From contig CAVZRV010000008.1 of the NCBI GenBank assembly GCA_963777605.1, forward strand, positions 449,761-513,760: 64,000 bases of DNA, written 5' to 3'. Both the position numbers and the translations under genes were made by a program. The notes under the pieces are model-generated. The model did not search any database, was not told the DNA's origin, and saw nothing but the letters and a program-made list of their open reading frames with translations. Source of the DNA: an uncultured Acidobacteriota bacterium. GTDB taxonomy: Bacteria; Acidobacteriota; UBA6911; RPQK01; JAPXNP01. Positions 15,986-51,328 of the stretch are shown in pieces (the first letter of the stretch is position 1; each line of letters begins with the position of its first letter).

Positions 15986-16060
<75 letters not shown>

Positions 16061-16095
16061 TTTGTTTTTGCTAAACACGCTGAAGAGGAGACGTT

Positions 16096-17283
<1,188 letters not shown>

Positions 17284-17295
17284 GCGGGTTGGTGT

Positions 17296-17371
17296 AGGCC
17301 AGTAGCTCAATTGGCAGAGCATCGGTCTCCAAAACCGGCGGTTGGGGGTTCAAGTCCCTCCTGGCCTGCCA
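17296..17371 (+). tRNA. tRNA-Trp(CCA)
   Basis: AGGCCAG/CTGGCCT acceptor, CT-CCA-AA loop, CCA end. Confidence 0.96.
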
Positions 17372-17399: not shown

Positions 17400-17615
17400 A
17401 TGTTGGAGAAATTGCAAGCGTTACCCGGAAGGATTGCCACCTTTACAAGTGAGGTGCGGTCTGAGTTGAAGAAGGTCACCTGGCCGAGCAAGAAAGAGGT
17501 CTACGGCACGACGGTTGTTGTTATCGTCAGTGTTATCTTTTTCGGTCTCTATTTGTTTGTGGTGGATTCGATACTTCAGGTCACGATCAATAGAATTTTT
17601 AAGTTCTTTTTGTAG
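17400..17615 (+). CDS. secE: Preprotein translocase SecE
   Basis: EVRSELKKVTWPSKKE plus TM helix; synteny. Confidence 0.95.
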   Translation: MLEKLQALPGRIATFTSEVRSELKKVTWPSKKEVYGTTVVVIVSVIFFGLYLFVVDSILQVTINRIFKFFL

Positions 17616-17671
17616 GGGCAGGGCGTTCTTTCCACGAGTTAGAATCGGGCTTTTGCTAAGGAGAGGTAATC

Positions 17672-18229
17672 ATTTCTGAGAAGGCTGCCGGCGGGTCGTC
17701 GCAGAAAAAATGGTACATCATCCACACCTACTCGGGCTACGAGCGAAAAGTGGCCGAGGGGTTGATGAATCGAGTCCAGGTCTACGGGCTGCAGGACAAG
17801 ATCGGTCAGATCCTGATACCGACCGAGGATGTGGTGGAAATGAAGGGAGGCAAGAAGGTCGTCACCTCCAAGCTCTTCTTTCCCGGCTACATCCTGGTTG
17901 AAATGGAGCTGAACGACGATACCTGGCACCTGGTGCGGAATACGCCGAAGGTCAGCGGATTCGTCAGTCAGGGGAATCAGCCGACCCCGCTGACGGAAGA
18001 GGAAGTGAACCAGGTCGTTCATCGTGTCTCGAGCGTCGGCGAGAAGCCGAAGCCCAAGTTCATGTTTGAGCGGGGCGAAACGGTGAAGATCATTGACGGG
18101 CCCTTCTCAAACTTTACGGGTGTGGTTGAGGATGTGAACCTGGAACGCAGCACCGTGAAGGTGATGGTTACGATTTTTGGCCGTGCCACACCGGTCGAAC
18201 TCGAGTTTGTTCAGGTCGAGAAGGTCTAG
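17672..18229 (+). CDS. nusG: Transcription termination/antitermination factor NusG (apparent ATT start)
   Basis: [14 protein letters not shown] lies upstream of the track's GTG (17750); [10 protein letters not shown]; KOW motif [10 protein letters not shown]. Confidence 0.95.
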
Positions 18230-18278
18230 CGGCCCTTTCGGGCGTTCCGGGAGCAATGGCTCTTGCGGGAGTGAATAA

Positions 18279-18704
18279 ATGGCAAAAAAGGTAATTGGCA
18301 TGATTAAGCTGCAGATTCCTGCGGGGAAGGCGACACCGGCGCCTCCTGTGGGGCCTGCGCTTGGTCAGCATGGCGTGAACATCATGGATTTCTGCAAGGC
18401 CTTCAATGCGAAGACCCAGGGGCAGGAGGGCCTGATTATTCCGGTGGTGATCACGGTCTATCAGGACCGCAGTTACTCGTTCATCACCAAGACGCCTCCC
18501 GCGGCCGTTCTGCTGAAAAGGGCTGCCAGTATCGCCAAGGGGTCGGCGGAGCCGAACAAGACCAAGGTGGCGAAGGTGGACATGAAGCAGGTTGAGGAAA
18601 TCGCCAAGCTGAAGATGCCGGATTTGAACGCGGCGAGCCTTGAGGCTGCGGTGAAGATCATTGCCGGGACTGCTCGAAGCATGGGAATCGAGCTCAAGGA
18701 ATAA
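18279..18704 (+). CDS. rplK: 50S ribosomal protein L11
   Basis: [28 protein letters not shown]. Confidence 0.99.
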
Positions 18705-18710
18705 CGGATT

Positions 18711-19400
18711 ATGGCGGGCAAGAAATTTGTAGAAGCTGAGAATCGGGTAGAGCCGTCGGATTATGCGCTGGAAGATGCCATCGACCTGATGGTTTCCGTC
18801 AAGTTTGCCAAATTCGACGAGACTGCCGAAATCGCGATGAATCTGGGCGTTGATCCGAAGCACGCCGACCAGATGGTGAGGGGAACCGTTGTGCTTCCCA
18901 ATGGTCTGGGTAAATCGGTGCGCGTCTGCGTGGTCGCCTCGGGCGAGAAGATGAAAGAAGCCGAGGAGGCAGGAGCCGACTTCTCCGGCGGGGAAGACAT
19001 CGTCGAAAAGATCCAGGAGGGTTGGACCGCCTTCGATGCCATGGTGGCGACGCCCGACATGATGAAGCTGGTAGGAAAGCTGGGACGGATCCTGGGGCCG
19101 AGGGGTCTGATGCCGAACCCGAAGACGGGTACCGTGACCTTCAACGTCAAGGAGGCGATCGAAGACATCAAGGCCGGAAAAGTCGAATTTCGGGTAGATA
19201 AGAACGGCGTTATTCATGCCCCCTTCGGCAAGCTGTCTTTCCCCAAGGAAAAGTTGGTGCAGAATGCACGGAGTCTGATTGACGCGGTCCTTCGTGCGAA
19301 GCCTTCCGCTGCCAAGGGTCGTTACGTTCGAAGTGTTTCAATCAGCTCGACGATGGGCCCCGGTATTCGTTTAGATGTTGCCCAGTTGGGTGCGAAGTAG
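18711..19400 (+). CDS. rplA: 50S ribosomal protein L1
   Basis: [36 protein letters not shown]. Confidence 0.99.
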
Positions 19401-19412
19401 GAGCTCCGGATT

Positions 19413-19931
19413 ATGAACAGGGCTGAAAAGACAGAGCTTATCGAGAGCATGCACAAGAGCTTCTCCGAGAGCGGAAACGTTATTGTGCTCAGCTTTAACG
19501 GGGTCGACGTCCCGGATATCACCGACCTGCGACAAAAGATTCGTGACAGCGAAGGCAGCTATGAGGTGGTCAAGAACACCCTGGCTATCCGGGCTGCCGA
19601 GGGGACTCCGGTAGGGGGACTCAAGGAGCAGTTTACCGGGCCCACTGCGGTTGCCTGCACGTCGAAAGATCCGGTGTCGCTGGCGAAGATTCTGAAGGAT
19701 TTCGTAAAGACCCATCCCGGCATGTCGTTCAAGGCGGCAATCCTCGAGGGGCGGCCGATTGACCAGGCGCAGGTGGAGTCGCTGGCGGAGATGCCGTCCC
19801 GGGAAGAATTGCTTTCCAGGCTGCTGTTCATGTTGAACGCGCCGCTTACCCGGTTGGCGTCGGCTCTCCAGTCTCCGGTCAGGAACTTGGCCATCGTGCT
19901 TAATGAGTTGGCCAAGAAGAATCAGCAGTGA
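19413..19931 (+). CDS. rplJ: 50S ribosomal protein L10
   Basis: VVKNTLA, GPTAVA, LAEMPSREELL; synteny. Confidence 0.97.
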   Translation: MNRAEKTELIESMHKSFSESGNVIVLSFNGVDVPDITDLRQKIRDSEGSYEVVKNTLAIRAAEGTPVGGLKEQFTGPTAVACTSKDPVSLAKILKDFVKTHPGMSFKAAILEGRPIDQAQVESLAEMPSREELLSRLLFMLNAPLTRLASALQSPVRNLAIVLNELAKKNQQ

Positions 19932-19973
19932 AAAGCCTTTTTATCTCTATATCGTTGCAAGGAGTAATGAACA

Positions 19974-20360
19974 ATGGCGATCAGTCGTGAAGATGTCCTG
20001 GGCTGGATCGAGCAGGCCTCGATCCTTGAGATTAATGATTTAGTGAAGGACCTGGAAGAGAAGTTTGGAATCAGTGCAGCCGCGGCTGCACCGGTTGCCG
20101 TCATGGCCGGTGGCGCCGGAGCCGGCGCTGCAGCTGCTGAAGAAGAGCAAACCGAGTTCGACGTGGTTCTTACCTCCTTCGGCGACAAGAAGATCAACGT
20201 GATCAAAGTGGTCCGCGAAGTCACCAGCCTCGGCCTCAAGGAAGCCAAGGATCTGGTTGAGGGCGTTCCCAAGGCCGTTAAGGAAGCTATCACGAAGGAA
20301 GAGGCTGCGGAAATTAAGAAGAAGTTCGAGGACGCTGGGGCAACCGTCGAAATTAAATAG
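19974..20360 (+). CDS. rplL: 50S ribosomal protein L7/L12
   Basis: [31 protein letters not shown]. Confidence 0.99.
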
Positions 20361-20444
20361 GGATTGCCTGAGCTTGTACAATCACTCCAGGTGTGCTACG
20401 CTCACTCAAGCGTGGTTTTTGATATTTCTTCTTTGATTTAGGGA

Positions 20445-20476
20445 AGGAAAAGGGGCAAGTGTCCCTTTTCCTTTTT
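20445..20476 (+). terminator. Intrinsic terminator/attenuator after rplL
   Basis: AAGGAAAAGGGGC-AAGT-GTCCCTTTTCCTT followed by T run. Confidence 0.7.
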
Positions 20477-20710
20477 CTATTTCAGATGCGCGTGTTTCTC
20501 CAGGTCCGTTGATGAAGTCGGTCATCCGTGTCCCAGGCCTTCCGATGCGCGAATTCATGCCGGGTCCAGATCGGTCTCGCCCAATTCAGAACAGTTGCCG
20601 GTCTTGGGCTGCCGGTTTTGGAGGGCCGGTCTCCGGAGCGGCCTCGGCGTTTTTGGTTGAGGAATTCCTGTCGCCTTGTCCGAGCGTGTCCAAGTGTGAC
20701 GTGTCTTCAG

Positions 20711-20743
20711 GTGGCGAATAATGACCATTCCAGCTATCGGCGC
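20711..20743 (+). other. Probable 5' fragment of rpoB cut off at the segment junction
   Basis: GTG GCG AAT AAT GAC CAT TCC AGC TAT CGG CGC (MANNDHSSYRR) where rpoB is expected after rplL; no rpoB body follows. Confidence 0.4.
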
Positions 20744-21667
20744 CTAAGCGGCGTTTTTTCGTGGCGTATGCCCCTGGTGGCGCAGTGGCCGCTCAGTTGG
20801 GTGCTGGGCGTAGTATTCAGCCGCTAGAATCGCGTTTATAAGCCCCGTTTTACGCATACCAAGCGTGCGCGCCATGCTCATGTCCGTTTCGCCGCTGCCA
20901 ACACCCAAAAATTGCAGCGAACTGGGGTTAATGTGCGAGCTCATTGCGTTCGCACCGAGGCCGTTTAGGGTGGTAGCATGTTCACTCATGCCGGCCGTTT
21001 CATCAATAGTGGATGTATCAAGATAGTTAATTTGCGGTGGAATGCCCAGCGAACGGCACACTAACTCTTCCGAGCGGCCACCAAGGCTCATTTCGCCGTC
21101 TAATATCATCAGCATAGCTTGCACATTGTTGGGTTCGAGCCGGCCGCCCTTTTCCTGTGCGCGTTCAATCAGTAGCTTGCGGTATTCACTGGCGAGCTGC
21201 TTGTAGTGCCCCCAGCGCACGTCGTGATCAAGCGACGAATCGGTAAAGCCAGGCAGGGCAAGGGTAGGGGTAATCTTCTCACTAATCACCGCCGCATCAT
21301 CTTTTTCAACGCCCATCATCACGTGGAACCAAAACAATAGGTAATCGCTCTGCGACCAACCCTTCATTTTGCCCACTTCAGACGGCAAAATAATATCGGC
21401 TTCGGTAAACATTGGATGTTGGTACAGCAAAGCACGCTTAGCGATGTCGCCGTAGCTGCTATTTTTACCAATCACTTCGCCAATCCCAAGCTGCTTGTCA
21501 CGGGCATAGCCACCACTAGTGATTGCCATACTCAGGTAAATCGTGGGGTCTAAGCCTTCATCGACTAAATAGTCATCGTACAATTCGTAGGCTTCTTGGG
21601 GTTCTACACGGCGCTCGGCGGCGTAGGCTTCCATGGTTTCAAAAACGGGGCGATAGGGGCTGGGCAT
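20744..21667 (-). CDS. Hypothetical protein with nucleoside-2-deoxyribosyltransferase/DUF4406-like motifs
   Basis: SD AAAGGAG before ATG 21667; IYLSMAITSGG and DGEMSLGGRSEELVCRSLGIP. Confidence 0.55.
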   Translation of the reverse strand: MPSPYRPVFETMEAYAAERRVEPQEAYELYDDYLVDEGLDPTIYLSMAITSGGYARDKQLGIGEVIGKNSSYGDIAKRALLYQHPMFTEADIILPSEVGKMKGWSQSDYLLFWFHVMMGVEKDDAAVISEKITPTLALPGFTDSSLDHDVRWGHYKQLASEYRKLLIERAQEKGGRLEPNNVQAMLMILDGEMSLGGRSEELVCRSLGIPPQINYLDTSTIDETAGMSEHATTLNGLGANAMSSHINPSSLQFLGVGSGETDMSMARTLGMRKTGLINAILAAEYYAQHPTERPLRHQGHTPRKNAA

Positions 21668-21791
21668 TGCTACTCCTTTTGTGTCGTTAGCTGCACCCAC
21701 CATGCGTTAACCCTTACTTTAGTGGCACCTGCCCAGGCTGTCAATTACACCACTTTAAGCCCTGGCCACAGTTTGCTACAATAGACATAAT

Positions 21792-43856: not shown

Positions 43857-43952
43857 ATAACAGGCTATTTTGCACCCTAAACGTCATTTTGTCAATATTC
43901 CTATATCACCCTTGTCATTATTTGTAATTTCGATTATAATAATCATCAGACA

Positions 43953-44058
43953 TTACCAGAGACAGTAGCAGCAGGGGAAACCCGCTTAATCCGCTACCGA
44001 GGAGTGAAAATTACTTTCGTTCTAAAAGAAGTCTTTGCTGATGCAAGGGCTGTTTTTA
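43953..44058 (+). promoter_or_regulatory. Ribosomal protein L10 leader with downstream hairpin/T run
   Basis: CCAGAGACAGTAGC...TTAAT..GCTACCGAGG matches L10-leader core; promoter TTGTCA-17-TATAAT (43912-43940). Confidence 0.75.
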
Positions 44059-44125
44059 TAACACTGGCATGTCGCTACCTTTACAATGTGGTCGAACTAT
44101 TAAACCCTAACGGAGAATGTAATTT

Positions 44126-44650
44126 ATGGCAATTACTCGCGATAAAAAACACGCGTTAGTAAGTGAAATGAGTGAACTTTTAGCAGATGCTAAGATGACC
44201 GTATACGCACAGTACAACGGCCTTAGTGTGGCTGATTTACAAACACTTCGCCGCAATGCTCGTGAAGCTGGCGTTACCATTAAAGTGGTTAAAAACCGCT
44301 TGGTACGCGTCGCGTTTGCCGAGCAGGCAAAGTATAAAGACGTTGATACCGCCGACCTAGTTGGCCAGCTCCTCTACGCCGTCAGCACTGACGACGAAGT
44401 GGCGCCAGCCCAAGTGTTCGACAAATTCGCTAAAGACAACCCAGCGCTCCAAGTGGTGGGAGCTGTCAGCGGCGAGGCTGCAAAGCTATCAACCGACGAA
44501 GTGAAGGCGCTCGCTGGCTTGCCAAGCAAGAACCAGCTTATCGCCGAAGTGGTGGCTCAACTACTTTCACCAGTACACGATGTTACCAATGCGCTTTCAG
44601 GCAACCTCCACGGCTTGCTTGATGGTGTAGAAGCAAAGGCAAACGCCTAA
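44126..44650 (+). CDS. rplJ: 50S ribosomal protein L10
   Basis: YNGLSVADLQTLR, VVKNRL, LAGLPSK. Confidence 0.96.
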   Translation: MAITRDKKHALVSEMSELLADAKMTVYAQYNGLSVADLQTLRRNAREAGVTIKVVKNRLVRVAFAEQAKYKDVDTADLVGQLLYAVSTDDEVAPAQVFDKFAKDNPALQVVGAVSGEAAKLSTDEVKALAGLPSKNQLIAEVVAQLLSPVHDVTNALSGNLHGLLDGVEAKANA

Positions 44651-44710
44651 CATTTCACTAAGCTTACGCGTCAATAAGACGTAACGATATAGAATCAAAG
44701 GAGATTAACT

Positions 44711-45095
44711 ATGGCTGATGTAAAGAAACTCGCCGAAGAACTGACAAAACTGACAGTTCTCGAAGTAAACGAACTAAAGAATGTCCTCAAAGACGAATAC
44801 GGCATCGAACCTGCTGCTGCAGCTGTTGCTGTTGCAGGCCCTGCTGCTGGCGGTGACGCTGGTGCAGACTGCTGCCGACGAAAAGACCGAATTCACCGTC
44901 AACCTTAAAGACGCTGGTGCGCAAAAAGTTGCTGTGATCAAGGCTGTGAAAGAAATCACCGGCCTTGGCCTTGGTGAAGCAAAGGCGCTTGTAGACAACG
45001 CGCCAAGTGCTATCCTTGAAAAGGCTGGCAAAGACGACGCTGAAAACGCCAAGAAGCTTCTTGAAGAAGCTGGCGCAAGCGTAGAACTTGCCTAA
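44711..45095 (+). CDS. rplL: 50S ribosomal protein L7/L12; one frameshift near 44870 (likely sequencing error)
   Basis: [19 protein letters not shown] in one frame; [25 protein letters not shown] in the next. Confidence 0.93.
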
Positions 45096-45128
45096 GTTCA
45101 CTTGTTAACACCCGACCACTTGTAAACG

Positions 45129-45159
45129 AACTGCCCCTCTAGCTTGAGGGGCAGTTTTT
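45129..45159 (+). terminator. Intrinsic terminator after rplL
   Basis: AACTGCCCCTC-TAGCTT-GAGGGGCAGTT plus T run. Confidence 0.8.
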
Positions 45160-45162
45160 GTA

Positions 45163-45191
45163 TTGACTATTTATGCTGATTATGCTATAAT
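45163..45191 (+). promoter_or_regulatory. sigma70 promoter of ORF 45228
   Basis: TTGACT-17-TATAAT with extended -10 TG. Confidence 0.8.
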
Positions 45192-45227
45192 GATAATGAT
45201 AAGCCATCCATCTACGAAGGGAACCAC

Positions 45228-45902
45228 ATGGCTCGTACCTTTGCCATCGACTACTACGAGTTCGACGACGACACTTGGAGCGACAGCGTCCAGGGCGTTC
45301 AGGTCAAGGCGCGCAGCGCCTCCGACCTGGCCCTCATCGCGAGCGCCACGCCGCCCGTCGTCCACATGCCCAAGTGGGAGCTCTACCGCGAGCGCCAGCC
45401 CATGACGCGTGCCCGGCGTAACCGCCAGTACACGCGCATGGACCGTTGGCACAAGCGCGAGCACGCCGCCGCCATGGCCGCCCAGAAGGCGCGCCGTGAC
45501 GACGAGGCCACTTGGGGTGTCGAGAGCGACCCCTACGCCCACTTGCACGACGCGGAGTGGGACCACTGCGACGAGCTGGACTGCTGGAGCCCCTGCGGCT
45601 GCTACGGACCGTGCTTCCACGAAGAGGCTGGCACCGTGCACCCCACGGAGCAGCAGCGCGAGCTGTTCGCAGCCGTCGCACCCATCACCGCTCTGCCGGT
45701 GCAGATCCTGCCGACGAAGCGCAGCGAGAAGTCGACGCTGATGAAGCGTCCGTCGCCCTCGCCGGTTCGCCGCAAGAGCGCACCGCAGCCGCAGTTGCCG
45801 CCGCACCTGCGCGTCCCCGAGAACGAGGAGCGCTGGCGCGACGGGCACCGTGGTGGTCGCGGCACCAAGGGTCGTCACCGCATGGTGCGGCTCGTCAGCT
45901 AG
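45228..45902 (+). CDS. Very GC-rich hypothetical protein with Cys cluster and basic C-terminus ending RLVS
   Basis: GAAGGGAACCAC-ATG RBS, strong G/C third-position bias, CDELDCWSPCGCYGPC. Confidence 0.75.
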   Translation: MARTFAIDYYEFDDDTWSDSVQGVQVKARSASDLALIASATPPVVHMPKWELYRERQPMTRARRNRQYTRMDRWHKREHAAAMAAQKARRDDEATWGVESDPYAHLHDAEWDHCDELDCWSPCGCYGPCFHEEAGTVHPTEQQRELFAAVAPITALPVQILPTKRSEKSTLMKRPSPSPVRRKSAPQPQLPPHLRVPENEERWRDGHRGGRGTKGRHRMVRLVS

Positions 45903-45914
45903 CGCTGGCATCCT

Positions 45915-45970
45915 GAGGCCTGGTACCCTCGATGAACCCCTAGTGGGAACATCGGGGGTCACCAGGCCTC
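45915..45970 (+). other. Conserved C-bulged hairpin, copy 1
   Basis: GAGGCCTGGT-ACCCTCGATG...CATCGGGGGT-C-ACCAGGCCTC; homologous to 46871-46927. Confidence 0.75.
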
Positions 45971-45984
45971 TTCGCATAGAAAAA

Positions 45985-46029
45985 ACCCGCAGTGGCGGTA
46001 GTCGATTCTACGACTACCGCTCTGCGGGT
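45985..46029 (-). terminator. Long bulged terminator of ORF 46046-46558
   Basis: ACCCGCAG..GCGGTAGTCG-loop-CGACTACCGC.CTGCGGGT with A run on + strand. Confidence 0.7.
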
Positions 46030-46045
46030 GTTGCGCTTTAGCGCA

Positions 46046-46558
46046 CTATGAAGGTGGCGTGAGCGGTTCGAACTGTAGCTCACCGCCTACACGACGATAG
46101 CGACCATAGATCCTGCCTGGCTGGCCAACGATCTGACGCCTGAACGCCCGCGTGACATCAAACGCGACCCACTCTCCCTCAAGCTCCAGCTTAGCTGTTC
46201 GCGGGAACATCGCGTCATCTGCACCAATCATGTTAGCGTATTCAGCGGCAGTGGTTTGTAGCCGTGGGACGCCGTGCCGCACAGGGAAGTAGTACCCCGT
46301 GATATCAAACCACCCCAGTTTCCATAGCTCCTCCTGGCGGTGTTCACGCCACAAGCACAACAGCAGCACTGCAACGAGACCGAGAATACCAGCCGACAGA
46401 ATGACACCAGGCACCAACGCGCGGCGTGATGCAAAAATCATCACAACACCGATCACCGTGATTGCGCCTGCGGCGAGACCCAGAATTGTTCCAAGATCTT
46501 CCAGGCGCTTATAATGGCGCACAAGGCCAGGATCCTCATATACTTCCGTAGACCGCAT
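46046..46558 (-). CDS. 2-TM hypothetical membrane protein (cassette class)
   Basis: AAAGGAGGAG SD before ATG 46558; TTGCTA-17-TAAAAT promoter. Confidence 0.75.
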   Translation of the reverse strand: MRSTEVYEDPGLVRHYKRLEDLGTILGLAAGAITVIGVVMIFASRRALVPGVILSAGILGLVAVLLLCLWREHRQEELWKLGWFDITGYYFPVRHGVPRLQTTAAEYANMIGADDAMFPRTAKLELEGEWVAFDVTRAFRRQIVGQPGRIYGRYRRVGGELQFEPLTPPS

Positions 46559-46638
46559 GGCTCCTCCTTTTAGTAGGGTCGTGGGCACAGAATAGGCATA
46601 TTTTATACTTTTTTTCATATTTTAGCAAGGTATAGTTA

Positions 46639-46667
46639 TTGACATTTTATACTGCTTGTGCTATAAT
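46639..46667 (+). promoter_or_regulatory. Consensus sigma70 promoter of small RLVS ORF
   Basis: TTGACA-17-TATAAT with extended -10 TG. Confidence 0.82.
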
Positions 46668-46714
46668 AGTAAACGTAAGTCGATTCATACCCGTCGTCCC
46701 CGAAAGGACACCAC

Positions 46715-46865
46715 ATGTCGACCAGCACCACCCAGCCCCAGCCCAGTGCACCGGCAGCGCCGCATCACCAACAGCAGTGCGCTGCCGAAGCACCTGCGCA
46801 CCGAGGAGCCGCGCCGTGAGCGCCGCTCCAGCCCCGGCCATTCCGGCCCGCGCCTGGTCAGCTGA
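46715..46865 (+). CDS. ~50-aa basic peptide homologous to the C-terminus of ORF 45228; needs one frameshift near 46730
   Basis: GAAAGGACACCAC-ATG RBS; shifted frame gives PSPSPV...LPKHLR...RLVS-stop. Confidence 0.6.
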
Positions 46866-46870
46866 GACCT

Positions 46871-46927
46871 GAGGTCTGGCGCCCCTGATGATACCCACCC
46901 ATGGGACATCGGGGGCCGCCAGGCCTC
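46871..46927 (+). other. Conserved C-bulged hairpin, copy 2
   Basis: GAGGTCTGGC-GCCCCTGATG...CATCGGGGGC-C-GCCAGGCCTC; compensatory changes relative to copy 1. Confidence 0.75.
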
Positions 46928-46984
46928 TTCGCTTTTTCAAAAAAGTACTTGCGTAAGCACTATATGTGGTGTAGTATCAGAGGC

Positions 46985-47056
46985 ATGAGCCGTATGAATA
47001 TCATTATTAGCATCATTATTCGCCCCCGCGAAGCGGTGCTAGTTGCTCATACGTAA
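46985..47056 (+). CDS. Ile-rich attenuator leader peptide MSRMNIIISIIIRPREAVLVAHT
   Basis: Six Ile codons at 47000-47020; TTGCGT-17-TAGTAT promoter 7 nt upstream; terminator follows. Confidence 0.8.
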   Translation: MSRMNIIISIIIRPREAVLVAHT

Positions 47057-47080
47057 AAATAACCCTACGAACCAAAAGAG

Positions 47081-47107
47081 CTCCCGGCACTGCAGCCGGG
47101 AGTTTTT
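47081..47107 (+). terminator. Attenuator terminator upstream of threonine dehydratase-like gene
   Basis: CTCCCGGC-ACTGCA-GCCGGGAG-TTTTT; alternative pairing of 47033-47048 with 47078-47093. Confidence 0.82.
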
Positions 47108-47139
47108 CATTTTCGTAACAAGAGGATAAGGAGAATACC

Positions 47140-48208
47140 ATGTCAGATCTATACAAACCAGGGCACTTCGACCCAAAACCAGACACCGTCATGCCAGGTG
47201 AGACTGCGCTTAGCGATTGTCGATGCGTTTCGCGGGGAAGCCGACGACAGGGCGCGCATGGAAGATCTGGAGTGCGAGTTCCCATTTTTTGCCCAGCGAT
47301 ACGGCCTCCGCGGCGTTGCACTGATGGATTTGGCCGACAACCAAGCCGGTGCATTTAAATGGCGCGGTGCAGTGACGGGGTTGGTGCACCATATGGAAGA
47401 TGGTGCTGACCATTTTGTTGCACCAAGTGCCGGCAATCATGCACGCGGCGCAATCTTAGCCGCGCGCTGGTTCAACCAACACCTGACGGTTGCCGTTCCT
47501 AGTTCTGCGCCGCCCAGCAAGCGTGAAATGCTGAACGAGCTATGGGGCTCGCATATGCTTGATGTGCGCACCGTGGGCGCAACCTTTAACGACTCACTGG
47601 CCTGGGCGCTGAGTTCACCGTACGCGATGCTCCACCCATTTGATGATGAAGCCGTGATGGCCGGGCAGGGCACTGCGCTTGATGACGTGCTGGCTGGTCG
47701 CCCAGAAACACAGCATGTGGTACTACCAAGTGGTGGCGCAGGCCTCGGTGGTGGTGTCGTAAGGCGCCGTGACGAATTAGGGCGCCAGGACGTGGCTATC
47801 CATCTCGTGCAAGCATCTGGGAGTAACAGTTTAAGTAATAGCTTACAGCGCGGTGAGCTGACATCCGCCGACGCACCGAACCACTTATACGGTGGCGCGC
47901 ATGTCGAGCGCGTTGGGGTACACCCGCTCACGCAGGTTGCCCGTGGCGAAAATGTGTTTGTTCATACCGTGCCAGAAGCCGATATGGATGAACTGCGCGA
48001 CCTGTATAGTCATGGTCGCGAAGTTTTGTTGCGTGAAGACACTCCGAACTTTGAACCGACATCGCTGCTCGCCGTCGCCGCGTTAAAACGGCTACAACTC
48101 ACGGGTGATGTTACCGTGCTTGGCACGGGTAAAAATGACAGTATTTACCCCCAAACAGCCGCCCGCGGTCGGCGCAACATGGTGTGGTATGGCCCGCAAG
48201 CTGCCTAG
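47140..48208 (+). CDS. Threonine/serine dehydratase-like PLP enzyme without regulatory domain; frameshift near 47205-47215
   Basis: AAGGAG SD at ATG 47140; GAFKWRGA, PSAGNHARG, HPFDD..MAGQGT, PSGGAGL in the 47198 frame. Confidence 0.82.
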
Positions 48209-48342
48209 TATTGCATAAAATACAACGCTTTTGATTATGCCTCTGTTTATCTTGTGGATAAGAATTTCCTTGACATCGCCGCACCCGAGTAGTATATAAT
48301 GAGGTCAGTATCACCCAAAAACAGACAAAGGAATGCGAGAAT

Positions 48343-48861
48343 ATGTCTGAATTACCAGAAAAACAGGTAAAGCGTTTAAAATCGTTGATCCAAGAAGCAG
48401 AAACGAACTTAGCAGCAGCCAAAGAATTGTTAATGAGCATCATCGGAGACGATGGCACTGTTGTACTCGGGCAATAGTCAGGCAGCGAAGAAGTCAGCGG
48501 TAAAGTTGTCGAAGGTGTTTTTGATGGCCAGGTTATGATTGGCCCAGATGGCAAAAGCTACCCTGTACCGGCCAACTACGCCAGTAAATCAAAACTTGTT
48601 GAAGGGGACATCCTTAAACTTACCATTGCCGATGACGGTGGCTTTATTTATAAACAAATTGGCCCAATTGCGCGCAAGCAAATTATTGGTACGCTCGTAC
48701 AGCATGACGGCGCCTACTATGTAGAAGCCAACGGTCGAGAATACCGCATCTTGCTTGCCAGCGTCACCTACTTCCGTATTAATATTGGCGACCAAGTCAC
48801 CATTATTGTTCCAGAAGACAACCCAGATGCTACCTGGGCAGCTGTTGAAGCCGCGCTCTAG
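48343..48861 (+). CDS. Conserved CPR-type hypothetical protein interrupted by in-frame TAG at 48475
   Basis: ATG 48343 in frame with 48535; EGVFDGQVMIGPDGKSYPVPANYASKSKLVEGD. Confidence 0.7.
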
Positions 48862-48961
48862 CCTATAGCACTAATACGAATACACATCCCTGAGTGGTTT
48901 GTGTATTTTTATTTTTATAGTATAATATATACGACATATCCCCGCACACGGAGGTGGAGTA

Positions 48962-49132
48962 ATGGTCTTCATACTTCCAGCAATCATGATCGTGCTCGGA
49001 CTCGCATTCCTTGGCCTCGGGCAGCGCAGCCAGACAGGCAAAAACCAGCGAGCGTGGAGCGCACTGGGGACATCATGCGTAATCCTTGCGTTTATCGCAC
49101 TCATCGCTGGGGCCATCATGTCATCGTGGTAA
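48962..49132 (+). CDS. 56-aa two-TM small membrane protein (below ORF-track cutoff; cassette class)
   Basis: GGAGGTGGAG SD; MVFILPAIMIVLGLAFLGLG...CVILAFIALIAGAIMSSW; TATAAT at 48921; hairpin ACCAGGTAG..CTACCTGGT plus T run. Confidence 0.75.
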   Translation: MVFILPAIMIVLGLAFLGLGQRSQTGKNQRAWSALGTSCVILAFIALIAGAIMSSW

Positions 49133-49286
49133 CTCAACCACACCACCAGGTAGCTTGCAGGCTTTGCTTAGCGAATACTACCTGGTTTTTTATTGTCAAT
49201 TTTACGGCCCCCAGCATGAGCGTATTGCGCTATACTAGCTACAAACGAACGGGTGGAGTTTAGAAGAGTAGGGGAATAATCAATCA

Positions 49287-49889
49287 ATGGCAAAGCTCAA
49301 TTTTCGCTATGGCGCGATGAACTGCGGCAAAAGCGACACCATGATCAGCACGGCGTTTAACTACACCGAAAACGGGCACAACGTCGTGACGATGATGCCT
49401 GGCTTCATGATGCGCGAACCCGGTTATACAACATCGCGTGCAGGCAAAAAGTGGGAAATTGACATTACTACCGACAACGAAACGGATGTGTACAATGCCT
49501 ATCATCGCTATATTGGTAGCGGGCTCATCCAGTGCGTATTGGTCGATGAAGCAACCTTTATGACGCCTGAACAAATTGACGATTTAGAACGAATCGCCAA
49601 ACTCGACGGTACATCGGTGATTGCATACGGTATCCGCACCAACATTCAGCGAAACCTGTTTGATGGCGCGAAGAGATTATTTGAACTCGCCGATACCATT
49701 GAAAACATGCCAACCATGTGTACCTGCGGCTCACGTGCCGAGTTTAACGGCCGCTTTGTTGATGGCGTCTTCCACGTCGGTGAGCCTATCGTGTGGCTCG
49801 ACAACGACCCTGGCCATGTAAAATACCAGTCGATGTGCGGTACCTGCTACCTTGAAAACCTTGCAATCCCCGGGGCAATAACCGAATAA
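49287..49889 (+). CDS. tdk: Thymidine kinase
   Basis: YGAMNCGKS, LVDEATF, IAYGIRTN, CTCG, SMCGTC. Confidence 0.92.
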   Translation: MAKLNFRYGAMNCGKSDTMISTAFNYTENGHNVVTMMPGFMMREPGYTTSRAGKKWEIDITTDNETDVYNAYHRYIGSGLIQCVLVDEATFMTPEQIDDLERIAKLDGTSVIAYGIRTNIQRNLFDGAKRLFELADTIENMPTMCTCGSRAEFNGRFVDGVFHVGEPIVWLDNDPGHVKYQSMCGTCYLENLAIPGAITE

Positions 49890-49933
49890 ATCACAACAGT
49901 TTATTGCGCGGAACCAAGCTATAATAATAGGCA

Positions 49934-51328
49934 ATGGGGCAGGCGTTATATCGTAAATATCGTTCACGGTCGCTCGACGAAATCGTCGGGCAGTCGCATA
50001 TTACGGCCATTTTACAGCGCGCGATTACAAGCGGCAACGTGGGGCACGCCTACCTACTCACAGGGCCAAAGGGTGTGGGGAAGACGTCAATTGCACGCAT
50101 ATTGGCACACGAAATCAATAAACTGCCGTATAGCGATGAATCGGATCATTTAGACATTATTGAAATCGACGCAGCCAGTAATAATAGCGTAGAAGACGTG
50201 CGTGATTTACGCGATAAAGTACGCATTGCACCCTCAAGCGCTGCTTACAAAATCTACATTATTGACGAAGTCCACATGCTGTCAAAGCAAGCATTCAATG
50301 CACTCCTAAAAACACTCGAAGAACCGCCAGCTCATGTCATTTTCATTCTAGCTACTACCGACGCCGATAAATTACCTGCGACGATTTTAAGCCGCGTGCA
50401 ACGCTTCAACTTCCGCACCATTCAACCTGCCGACGCAGCACGCCACTTGCGCCGCATTGCCGATGAAGAAAAGATTGCGATTACCGACGACGCCTTATCA
50501 CTGATTGCCCAACACGGCCGCGGTAGCTTCCGCGATAGCATTAGTTTGCTTGATCAGCTGCAACACATCGCCAGCGACATGATTACACCGAAAGATGTCG
50601 AGGGTGTGCTCGGCCTCGCCAGCTCGGCACTTGTCAGCGAATTACTCTCGGCCTACGATGCGGGTGATTTGCCCACCGTTGTACGCTTACTCGATACCGC
50701 CGAATCACAAGGTACATCAGCCGTGCAATTAATTGATCAACTCAGCTTTTACATCCGCGAACACATCCTAGAAGAACCACACCATCTCGCGCTACTCGAC
50801 CGCTTACTCGATGCTCGCCGCAGCAGTTGGCCAGACCTAAAGCTCCTCAGCACCCTCGCCGGAACTACCCCAGCAGTCACGCCAGCTGCCACCACAATAC
50901 GCACACCAGCACCTGCGGCCCAAGCGCCATCATCCCCAGCAGCAGCCCCCGTGGTTCCTAAAACCCAACCAGATGTAAAACCACCAAGTGCACCCGCCGA
51001 ACCAACCGAGCCAACGCCCCAAACCCGTGCAAGTGAGTTCCCGTGGACCGACTTTTTGACTGAGCTAAAAAGTAGAGCAATGGGTGCGCATACGTTAGTG
51101 AATAAGTGCGGTCATGAGTTTAATGGCAATACGCTGACAATTTTCGCAGGACGCAGCTTTACTAAGAAACAAATCGAAAAAGCACTGCCCGCCCTGCGTG
51201 AAGCGATGGAAGCAGTCGGTGTTAGCGATGCTGAAATTAGCGTCAGTGCTACCGCAAAACCACCCAAGGATAGCAAAACTGCAGAAATCCTTGCTATGAT
51301 GGGTGGAGGAGAAGAGGTGACCCTGTAA
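49934..51328 (+). CDS. dnaX: DNA polymerase III subunit gamma/tau
   Basis: LYRKYR, GPKGVGKTS, EIDAAS, IIDEVHMLS, LLKTLEEPP. Confidence 0.97.
   Translation: MGQALYRKYRSRSLDEIVGQSHITAILQRAITSGNVGHAYLLTGPKGVGKTSIARILAHEINKLPYSDESDHLDIIEIDAASNNSVEDVRDLRDKVRIAPSSAAYKIYIIDEVHMLSKQAFNALLKTLEEPPAHVIFILATTDADKLPATILSRVQRFNFRTIQPADAARHLRRIADEEKIAITDDALSLIAQHGRGSFRDSISLLDQLQHIASDMITPKDVEGVLGLASSALVSELLSAYDAGDLPTVVRLLDTAESQGTSAVQLIDQLSFYIREHILEEPHHLALLDRLLDARRSSWPDLKLLSTLAGTTPAVTPAATTIRTPAPAAQAPSSPAAAPVVPKTQPDVKPPSAPAEPTEPTPQTRASEFPWTDFLTELKSRAMGAHTLVNKCGHEFNGNTLTIFAGRSFTKKQIEKALPALREAMEAVGVSDAEISVSATAKPPKDSKTAEILAMMGGGEEVTL

Follow-up and report, generated by a model that had tools for sequence, protein, structure and literature searches.

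A conserved isoleucine-codon leader with the architecture of a transcription attenuator precedes a lone threonine/serine dehydratase-like gene in Saccharimonadia

In the enterobacterial leaders ilvL (ilvGMEDA) and ivbL (ilvBN), and in those of the trpL type, stalling of a ribosome on codons for the cognate amino acid leaves segment 2 of the leader RNA free to pair with segment 3, and the 3:4 terminator is blocked. A leader with the same logic, in which pairing of segment 2 with segment 3 is set against a 3:4 terminator, was found upstream of a stand-alone gene for a pyridoxal phosphate (PLP) enzyme in the last 64,000 nucleotides of contig CAVZRV010000008.1 (C8) of assembly GCA_963777605.1, a stretch referred to here as the window. 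The enterobacterial attenuators differ from this leader in having a 5' untranslated region with a Shine-Dalgarno sequence, multivalent codons and control over whole operons. The closest described system appears to be the ilvBNC attenuator of Corynebacterium glutamicum, whose leader peptide, IlvL, is MTIIRLVVVTARRLP (PMC11857589). In the passages of that report dealing with the leader, the transcript is leaderless, with the leader peptide beginning one base from the transcript start, and forms three hairpins, namely, an anti-antiterminator that takes in the initiation region and an overlapping antiterminator and terminator (PMC11857589). These features are shared by the locus described here, as are branched-chain regulatory codons and, for several of the leaders examined, a basic tail (..RR..). 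The C. glutamicum leader has mixed Ile/Val/Leu codons and serves a complete pathway in an actinobacterium, whereas the present one has isoleucine codons only and precedes a single orphan IlvA-like gene in Saccharimonadia. The likeness is one of architecture, and no Rfam family matched here: a search of positions 44000-50000 at E <= 1 returned two chance-level matches far below the gathering scores and no T-box or other cis-regulatory family.

The locus is, with good confidence, a leader-peptide transcription attenuator that would sense charged tRNA-Ile and control one stand-alone relative of the threonine/serine dehydratases, a reading based on the elements themselves, their conservation, their covariation and their geometry. 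The elements were as follows.

46911..46935 (+): terminator-like hairpin and T-run, with a 7-pair stem at 46911-46928 followed by a T-rich tail
46949..46977 (+): promoter-like sequence, TTGCGT (46949-46954), 17 nt, TAGTAT (46972-46977), with 7 nt to the leader ATG
46985..47056 (+): leader open reading frame (ORF), 23 codons plus TAA, MSRMNIIISIIIRPREAVLVAHT
46991..47053 (+): anti-antiterminator, in which the 5' part of the leader, including the isoleucine codons, pairs with segment 2 (minimum free energy fold)
47000..47020 (+): sensor with six isoleucine codons, ATC ATT ATT AGC ATC ATT ATT
47033..47048 (+): segment 2, the 5' strand of the antiterminator, GCGGTGC..GCTC
47078..47093 (+): segment 3, the 3' strand of the antiterminator, GAGC..GCACTGC, overlapping the 5' arm and loop of the terminator
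47081..47107 (+): intrinsic terminator, CTCCCGGC (47081-47088) and GCCGGGAG (47095-47102) followed by T5 (47103-47107)
47128..47133 (+): Shine-Dalgarno sequence AAGGAG, 6 nt ahead of the enzyme ATG at 47140
47140..48208 (+): stand-alone gene for a PLP enzyme of an IlvA/TdcB-like short family

The promoter, leader ORF, six isoleucine codons, terminator and both antiterminator arms were all found where an initial annotation of this DNA had placed them. The terminator has an 8-bp GC-rich core that can be extended to 13 pairs from 47076, a 6-nt loop and a predicted energy of -18.3 kcal/mol, and was called, with 13 pairs, by a consensus scan. Sites with at least six isoleucines per seven codons were rare, only 2 being present in all six frames of the 6.73-Mb assembly, one of which was this leader. 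The hairpin at 46911..46935 was assigned a proposed role in insulating the leader unit from upstream transcription, and a comparable hairpin was seen by eye after rplL, just ahead of the leader promoter, in loci L001, L003 and L007. The second run of isoleucine codons lies in the window at 43870-43968 (at 43927), in an AT-rich region before rplJ, reads ISIIIII and contains ATA codons. No terminator was found behind the run at 43927, which was taken as a promoter region and a chance occurrence.

Conservation of the leader was examined in loci encoding the same enzyme family. Of 28 loci, 27 had the leader ahead of the gene; these were the window, all 7 loci from GTDB genomes, genome G263 and 18 of the 19 metagenome loci. 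The metagenome set comprised 20 family loci, of which L026 had no upstream DNA, so that 19 were scored; the single exception, L008, begins inside the leader at a contig end and retains the terminator only. The GTDB loci were all titled Saccharibacteria, Saccharimonadales or Patescibacteria, all named loci were Saccharibacteria, and in all seven GTDB loci the ORF was Ile-rich and the hairpin was of the CTCCCGG type and carried a T-run. For RNA analyses, 23 of 26 leaders were utilized, L014, L016 and L019 being dropped as exact or near duplicates of L013, L012 and L018, respectively. The homologous ORFs were Ile-rich and began with M-S (examples are MSFLNMIISNIIIIRLQPAALLVHI, MSSNQQIIISIIISHGNARR and MSAMNQIISIIIIRTTRAAD), and each of the 23 leaders contained 4 to 7 isoleucine codons (91 ATT, 27 ATC and 1 ATA in total). 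A terminator was present in 23/23 leaders, as was a TAnnnT hexamer 6 to 9 nt before the start codon, whereas an SD-like motif was detected in only 2/23. Because a -10 box lies so close to the start codon and SD-like motifs are rare, the leader mRNA is predicted to be leaderless or nearly so. A covariance model of the leader, R1, was applied to 5 genomes and to the window's own assembly. Each yielded exactly one strong match, which in every case lay upstream of this gene; all other matches in those five genomes had E values of > 0.01.

Folding of the 162-nt leader from the window gave an energy of -52.4 kcal/mol (z = -5.4), and none of 200 shuffled sequences was as stable. In the full-length folds, the start region and the isoleucine codons (..AUCAGC..) were paired with segment 2 (GCUGAU..UGCUCAU), and the terminator formed separately. 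The leaders were also folded with the RNA blocked up to 12 nt beyond the last isoleucine codon, representing a ribosome footprint. With this mask, the remainder of the window leader folded exactly into the antiterminator of the initial annotation (-18.9 kcal/mol), and a two-helix antiterminator that included part of the 5' arm and loop of the terminator was formed in most of the 23 leaders. The terminator of L017 was mis-parsed in the masked-fold run, and terminators were re-parsed for the duplex analysis, in which a two-helix duplex between segments 2 and 3 was predicted in 23/23 leaders with energies of -15.8 to -22.0 kcal/mol; terminator energies ranged from -7.7 to -18.6 kcal/mol.

The terminator loops varied by lineage and segment 2 tracked these changes, with GCGGUGC/GCACUGC in the window, GGUGCUCG/CGAGCACC in L022 and GUUGCUGG/CCGGUAAC in the L011 group. 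Cross-pairing of segments from 12 lineage representatives produced a mean of -19.1 kcal/mol for cognate combinations of segments 2 and 3 versus -14.1 kcal/mol for non-cognate combinations, and 0 of 20000 permutations were as good (p about 5e-5). A MAFFT alignment of the 23 leaders had 82% of cells paired, with changes on both sides in 11 of 19 pairs of the anti-antiterminator helices and terminator; none of 500 shuffles matched the observed values and slid controls were 22 to 47% paired. Both-side changes were present in 5 of 6 pairs of helix P2 in alignment A2 (P1 and P2 being the anti-antiterminator helices). Segment 2 begins at nt 44 to 53 and the leader stop codon is at nt 46 to 76, such that the stop codon was in or just behind segment 2 in 23/23 leaders. 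The three elements of an attenuator, namely, an ORF with isoleucine codons, an intervening intrinsic terminator and a mutually exclusive antiterminator, were all identified computationally. The leader and both hairpins, proposed from the window only, are conserved in homologues, with a terminator and a co-varying antiterminator, and this conservation and covariation lent comparative support to the prediction of a translation-coupled, leaderless isoleucine attenuator.

These results suggested the following mechanism. Transcription would start no more than a few bases from the leader AUG, as the -10 box is 6 to 9 nt upstream, and a ribosome would load on the 5'-terminal AUG. If Ile-tRNA is plentiful, this ribosome would reach the stop codon and cover segment 2, because the stop is in or just behind this segment; segment 3 would then pair with segment 4, and the GC-rich hairpin and U-run would end the transcript before the enzyme gene. 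If Ile-tRNA is scarce, the ribosome would stall within the 4 to 7 isoleucine codons, leaving segment 2 free to pair with segment 3 in two helices. This pairing would take up the 5' arm and loop of the terminator, so that no terminator forms and an enzyme mRNA with its own AAGGAG is made. In the absence of translation, the 5' part of the leader would hold segment 2 and the default state would be off. We infer both translation of the leader and dependence on isoleucine from the arrangement of these elements.

The enzyme was examined by profile, structure and tree. The gene evidently starts at ATG 47140, which has the Shine-Dalgarno sequence. A 336-aa frame read from 47198 matched only PALP in Pfam (E = 1.8e-30, residues 29-304 of 336), and the best partial matches in NCBIfam were all threonine ammonia-lyases. 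A search of 5.8 billion proteins detected a sharply bounded family, with 92 further clusters at E values of 1e-113 to 6e-54 and the next match at 2e-21. Members are 320 to 414 aa with PF00291 alone, and those named were Saccharibacteria or Saccharimonadales, plus one 'Microbacteriaceae bacterium'. Residues K54, N80 and G179/G180/G182 were invariant in 19 sequences, and the PLP-binding residues of fold type II, for which an HMMER alignment of the enzyme to 1ve5 was made, were present. Likenesses to IlvA and TdcB (NF006390, TIGR01127, TIGR01124 and NF006389) include the PALP fold, the PLP lysine in F-K-x-R-G-A, the S-A-G-N-H loop, a glycine-rich phosphate loop and a T/S-G-x-N motif; F-K-W-R-G-A, S-A-G-N-H and the glycine loop were invariant in the family. 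An AlphaFold model (pLDDT 90.7) consisted of a single catalytic fold and a disordered tail, and its best neighbours in the PDB (TM 0.70 to 0.76) were human serine dehydratase, TdcB, the catalytic domains of IlvA, the Thermus threonine deaminase and serine racemases, with 2gn0, 8y1j, 8zkv and 1ve5 among them.

A C-terminal ACT-like regulatory domain, as a further difference from IlvA/TdcB, was not found by Pfam, in the survey of the family or in the structure model. The description of the enzyme as 'feedback-less' in the initial annotation holds in that sense only. In a tree of 72 rows, built from a quick search with long branches flagged and with L106 of the unpublished genome G345 left out, the 18 short-family rows fell in a 19-row clade with an SH-aLRT value of 100, the 19th row being a very long-branched metagenomic protein. 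The tree did not place the short family within either of the two clades of other Saccharimonadia IlvA-like proteins. The nearest family is that of the threonine/serine dehydratases without a regulatory domain, and membership of IlvA or TdcB is unsupported by the cut-offs. The reaction, which we infer from the sequence, is most likely deamination of threonine or serine to 2-oxobutanoate or pyruvate.

The remainder of the isoleucine pathway was looked for in ten Saccharimonadia genomes of 0.8 to 1.4 Mb, six with the short family and four with other ilv genes. IlvD was found in 0/10 genomes (G082 and G099 included), and matches to KARI_N in the ten genomes were marginal, at 19 to 27 bits. Aminotran_4 was detected in 2/10 genomes (G002 and G082). 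Acetohydroxy acid synthase (AHAS) was found in 0 of the 6 short-family genomes, as judged for G001-G005 by TPP_enzyme_N (0/5 over the cut-off) and for G263 by TIGR00118. Control genomes were positive in 13 to 14 of 14 cases for the pathway profiles. Consumers of 2-oxobutanoate were surveyed in ten genomes, with G224 and G239 in place of G260 and G300: PFL and Ldh_1_C were each found in 0/10, POR_N and E1_dh gave weak partial matches only, RidA was present in 1/10 and acetate kinase in 5/10. Any one metagenome-assembled genome may be incomplete; the pattern was consistent over the set. As no IlvD or IlvC was seen in the ten genomes, the enzyme appears to be an orphan; the other steps of isoleucine synthesis were not found, and nothing was seen that would be an obvious sink for its product. 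The claim that the gene is 'lone' was upheld both by these counts for IlvD and AHAS and by its neighbours, which are rplL, an unrelated insert, a gene for a 171-aa protein, tdk and dnaX. The portions of a report on a rhizosphere Saccharibacteria genome that concern amino acids describe a lack of de novo synthesis together with a capacity to aminate branched-chain keto acids (PMC6031116).

Related leaders were found more widely in the class. Model R1 matched 2 of 151 genomes in a class sample at E <= 1e-5, the second of them being G082. In a sample of 401 genomes searched with a protein profile, 42 (G345 among them) were positive at E <= 1e-10. The short family was present in 3 of these 42 (G001, G004 and G263), and the frames in most of the others were ~420 to 580 aa. 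In G082 (L128 1501-3349, G082:C1), an Ile/Val/Leu-rich leader, MSSVFSIIVSLVLVPSHGAGCSYQ, and a terminator precede a lone AHAS large subunit gene in the same slot after rplL; this AHAS is of the biosynthetic type (TIGR00118, 721 bits versus a cut-off of 538), and no ilvN, ilvC or ilvD follows it. In G099 (L129 2145-6213, minus strand, G099:C13), a Saccharimonadia genome of 1.3 Mb, the leader MTKPNVIIQLVITSHPARL precedes a ridA-ilvB-ilvA operon with scores of 115 versus 106 for RidA (TIGR00004), 753 bits for IlvB (TIGR00118) and 667 versus 411 for IlvA (TIGR01124), the latter being a bona fide two-domain protein. Weaker R1 matches (E < 0.02) were obtained in 14 of 29 loci searched; 12 were upstream of IlvA-like genes outside the short family, and the other two were in G263 (short family) and G082 (AHAS). 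A short ORF was present in 13 of these 14 loci, and most were Ile- or Ile/Val/Leu-rich. Since related leaders precede AHAS, ridA-ilvB-ilvA and IlvA-like genes, the switch in the window is the Ile-only member of a broader group of leaders for branched-chain amino acids found across this class.

The source of the DNA affects how the locus is to be interpreted. The assembly (6.73 Mb, 59% GC, 53 contigs, 96.7% completeness and 5.7% contamination) ends contig C8 with the window, in which the GC content falls to ~50% from roughly position 20,000 on. In the region 17400-20760, the secE-nusG-rplK-rplA-rplJ-rplL cluster of the large genome terminates at window position 20360, and its truncated rpoB begins at base 6 of a different contig (G000:C50:6-2978). 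A second rplJ/rplL pair (44126-45095), thyA, tdk and dnaX are present in the downstream part in the order of Saccharibacteria; at the locus itself, the order rplJ, rplL, leader, enzyme, 171-aa protein, tdk and dnaX is the same as in Saccharibacteria loci L001-L003, to whose 171-aa proteins that of the window is 91% identical. The drop in GC content, the second rplJ/rplL set and the gene order indicated that ~43 kb of Saccharibacteria-like DNA is mis-joined to a contig of another organism and hence that C8 is chimeric. The junction could be placed only approximately, at ~20.4-21 kb; the first gene past it (20747-21703, minus strand) was unmatched in 6 Saccharibacteria genomes with one query, a result that settles nothing. 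The term 'CPR-like genome' (CPR, candidate phyla radiation) in the initial annotation does not apply to the whole assembly, only the ~43-kb end of C8 being Saccharibacteria-like, and its suggestion of searching the genome for ilv genes would mislead, as those present in the assembly are from the large genome to which the fragment is mis-joined. The IlvD genes of the assembly sit on contigs of 59% GC and are uninformative for the Saccharibacteria-like fragment.

Other features of the window were noted in the course of this analysis. On the large-genome side, the ORF at 16039-17322 has a 98 to 99% identical copy on contig C10, split over two frames, and probably represents an insertion sequence. 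A 1.9-kb insert (45096-46984) of 60 to 70% GC separates rplL from the leader, with two family-less ORFs of 224 aa (+) and 190 aa (-) and a perfect TTGACA-17-TATAAT promoter at 46639-46667; the insert resembled neither the remaining assembly nor any of the loci fetched. The 171-aa protein gene (48343-48861), between the enzyme gene and tdk, was not assigned a function by Pfam, a sub-threshold MazE/AbrB-like match being the only one obtained, and the Atlas groups its product with CPR proteins automatically named L7/L12-like. This protein is 91% identical across Saccharibacteria loci, compared to only ~55% for the dehydratase-like proteins there, and the window copy of its gene has an in-frame TAG at 48475-48477.

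The window copy of the enzyme gene is itself split into two frames, from 47140 to ~47211 and from ~47213 to 48208, confirming that a frame change near 47205-47215 is present in the assembly. Compared with 18 homologues, the window has one surplus base within 47212-47215: the homologues have an unbroken GDEALxIIDxYR, where the window gives ..MPGETAL in frame 1 and AIVDAFR.. in frame 2. A search for sequencing runs containing the stretch listed no RNA run and yielded one run, X1. Matching read contigs from X1 (Logan contigs, ~3x) cover 47219-48034, with the site of the frame change outside, and their 16 differences from the window over 816 bases indicated that X1 represents a related strain. Run X3 contained no matching sequence for the stretch. 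The possibility of programmed +1 frameshifting at CTT-AGC was discarded, as the frame change occurred in 0/18 homologues. The frame change may be an assembly error.

Several observations weigh against an isoleucine attenuator controlling a threonine/serine dehydratase relative. The promoter is weak, with 7 of 12 consensus positions, and was not called by the consensus scan. RNAalifold on the plain MAFFT alignment returned 4 terminator pairs only, a low yield due to misaligned hairpin arms, and the register of the antiterminator differs between lineages, so that column-wise counting was not possible; the case for the antiterminator hence rests on the per-sequence folds and the cross-pairing test. 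The enzyme missed the curated equivalog thresholds, scoring 108.2 bits against a cut-off of 421 for IlvA (NF006390), 98.7 against 378.75 and 71 against 411.3 for other IlvA models (TIGR01127 and TIGR01124 among those tested) and 80.9 against 453 for TdcB (NF006389), with no tdc operon context; the earlier name 'threonine dehydratase' is accurate for the nearest family and goes beyond what these scores support. The short-family clade also stands on a long stem outside both clades of the other Saccharimonadia IlvA-like proteins, and a dehydratase induced in response to isoleucine makes no obvious sense without IlvC, IlvD and, mostly, a branched-chain aminotransferase. Finally, the frame shift and the TAG in the neighbouring gene mean that the window copy may be dead. 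That the locus is a relic in the window, with a real frame change and a pseudogene, whatever the switch does in relatives, is a serious possibility that we consider somewhat less probable than the contrary: the surplus base relative to 18 homologues and a TAG in so highly conserved a neighbour are what such decay would leave, but the leader, the Shine-Dalgarno sequence and all invariant catalytic columns are intact.

The low scores and the separate, long-branched clade would also be consistent with a different activity among fold-type-II PLP enzymes, for example racemization/epimerization or beta-elimination/replacement, with a substrate that directly provides or spares isoleucine. Serine racemases fit the model nearly as well as dehydratases, and a one-step route to isoleucine would explain a lone gene under isoleucine control; we nevertheless regard this as unlikely, as the best profile matches were all to threonine ammonia-lyases, true IlvA genes of the same class have homologous leaders upstream and the asparagine loop, S-A-G-N-H, is that of IlvA. 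A little less likely again is that the switch operates as described on a catabolic enzyme, isoleucine scarcity serving as a general starvation signal for deamination of serine and threonine to provide carbon, ammonia or energy rather than isoleucine. The lack of a regulatory domain is shared with catabolic TdcB and serine dehydratases, both among the best structural matches, acetate kinase was present in half of the genomes surveyed, and K01754 'tdcB', enriched in a Saccharimonadia genus, is read as a serine/threonine route into central metabolism in the parts of a preprint concerned with it (10.64898/2026.09.16.751625). However, the PFL, POR_N, E1_dh and TPP_enzyme_N profiles revealed no route by which 2-oxobutanoate could be converted to an acyl-CoA or acyl-phosphate in the genomes surveyed above, the sensor of the short family is strictly for isoleucine and, in related genomes, it occurs together with ilvA, ilvB and ridA genes of the bona fide biosynthetic kind. 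Translation of the leader and ribosome stalling are predictions from sequence, and the small ORF could instead encode a functional hydrophobic peptide or the hairpins could act without translation, as a tRNA- or protein-binding element. This is very improbable, since the peptide beyond M-S and the isoleucine run varies in sequence and length while RNA pairing is kept, including at third codon positions; the absence of a T-box or other Rfam family and the position of the stop codon in every leader argue in the same direction.

The relation of the attenuator to the host was also considered. Saccharimonadia epibionts might retain only the committed entry enzymes of branched-chain amino acid synthesis, which are normally under feedback control, each on its own Ile or Ile/Val/Leu attenuator (in the window, the IlvA-like enzyme without a regulatory domain; in relatives, ridA-ilvB-ilvA or a lone AHAS large subunit), and, when starved of isoleucine, export 2-oxobutanoate or acetohydroxy acids, of no use to the epibiont itself, to the host, bypass its feedback and harvest isoleucine. 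We consider this speculative and improbable. In branched-chain amino acid synthesis by Buchnera and its aphid host, the pathway is split between the partners of an insect endosymbiosis. The two cases are alike in that one partner holds only some of the isoleucine steps and intermediates would cross between cells, and unlike in that the division in the aphid is complementary, whereas the likely hosts here would own IlvA. If true, the epibiont proposal would describe a parasite-operated throttle on a host pathway.

The predicted mechanism is of a textbook kind; what is unexpected is the group, whose genomes lack the remaining isoleucine pathway. No description of an attenuator in Saccharibacteria or Patescibacteria was found in the literature, as judged from listings and apart from preprint supplements. 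Almost nothing is known of gene regulation in Saccharimonadia, which are taken to be amino acid auxotrophs, and the results presented here suggest that this class of the CPR uses, or at least strictly conserves, ribosome-coupled attenuation of the classical kind with a leaderless leader peptide. The chimeric 'genome' serves as a warning that the presence or absence of a pathway should be judged on related Saccharibacteria genomes and not on the assembly. The leader would constitute a compact, predictable isoleucine-responsive part, and it marks the enzyme family in metagenomes. The puzzle is an isoleucine sensor wired to one orphan enzyme and kept under purifying selection without the remaining pathway, and knowing whether the product is excreted, passes to the host or is used by an unrecognised enzyme would shed light on the ways in which epibionts acquire or manipulate amino acids.

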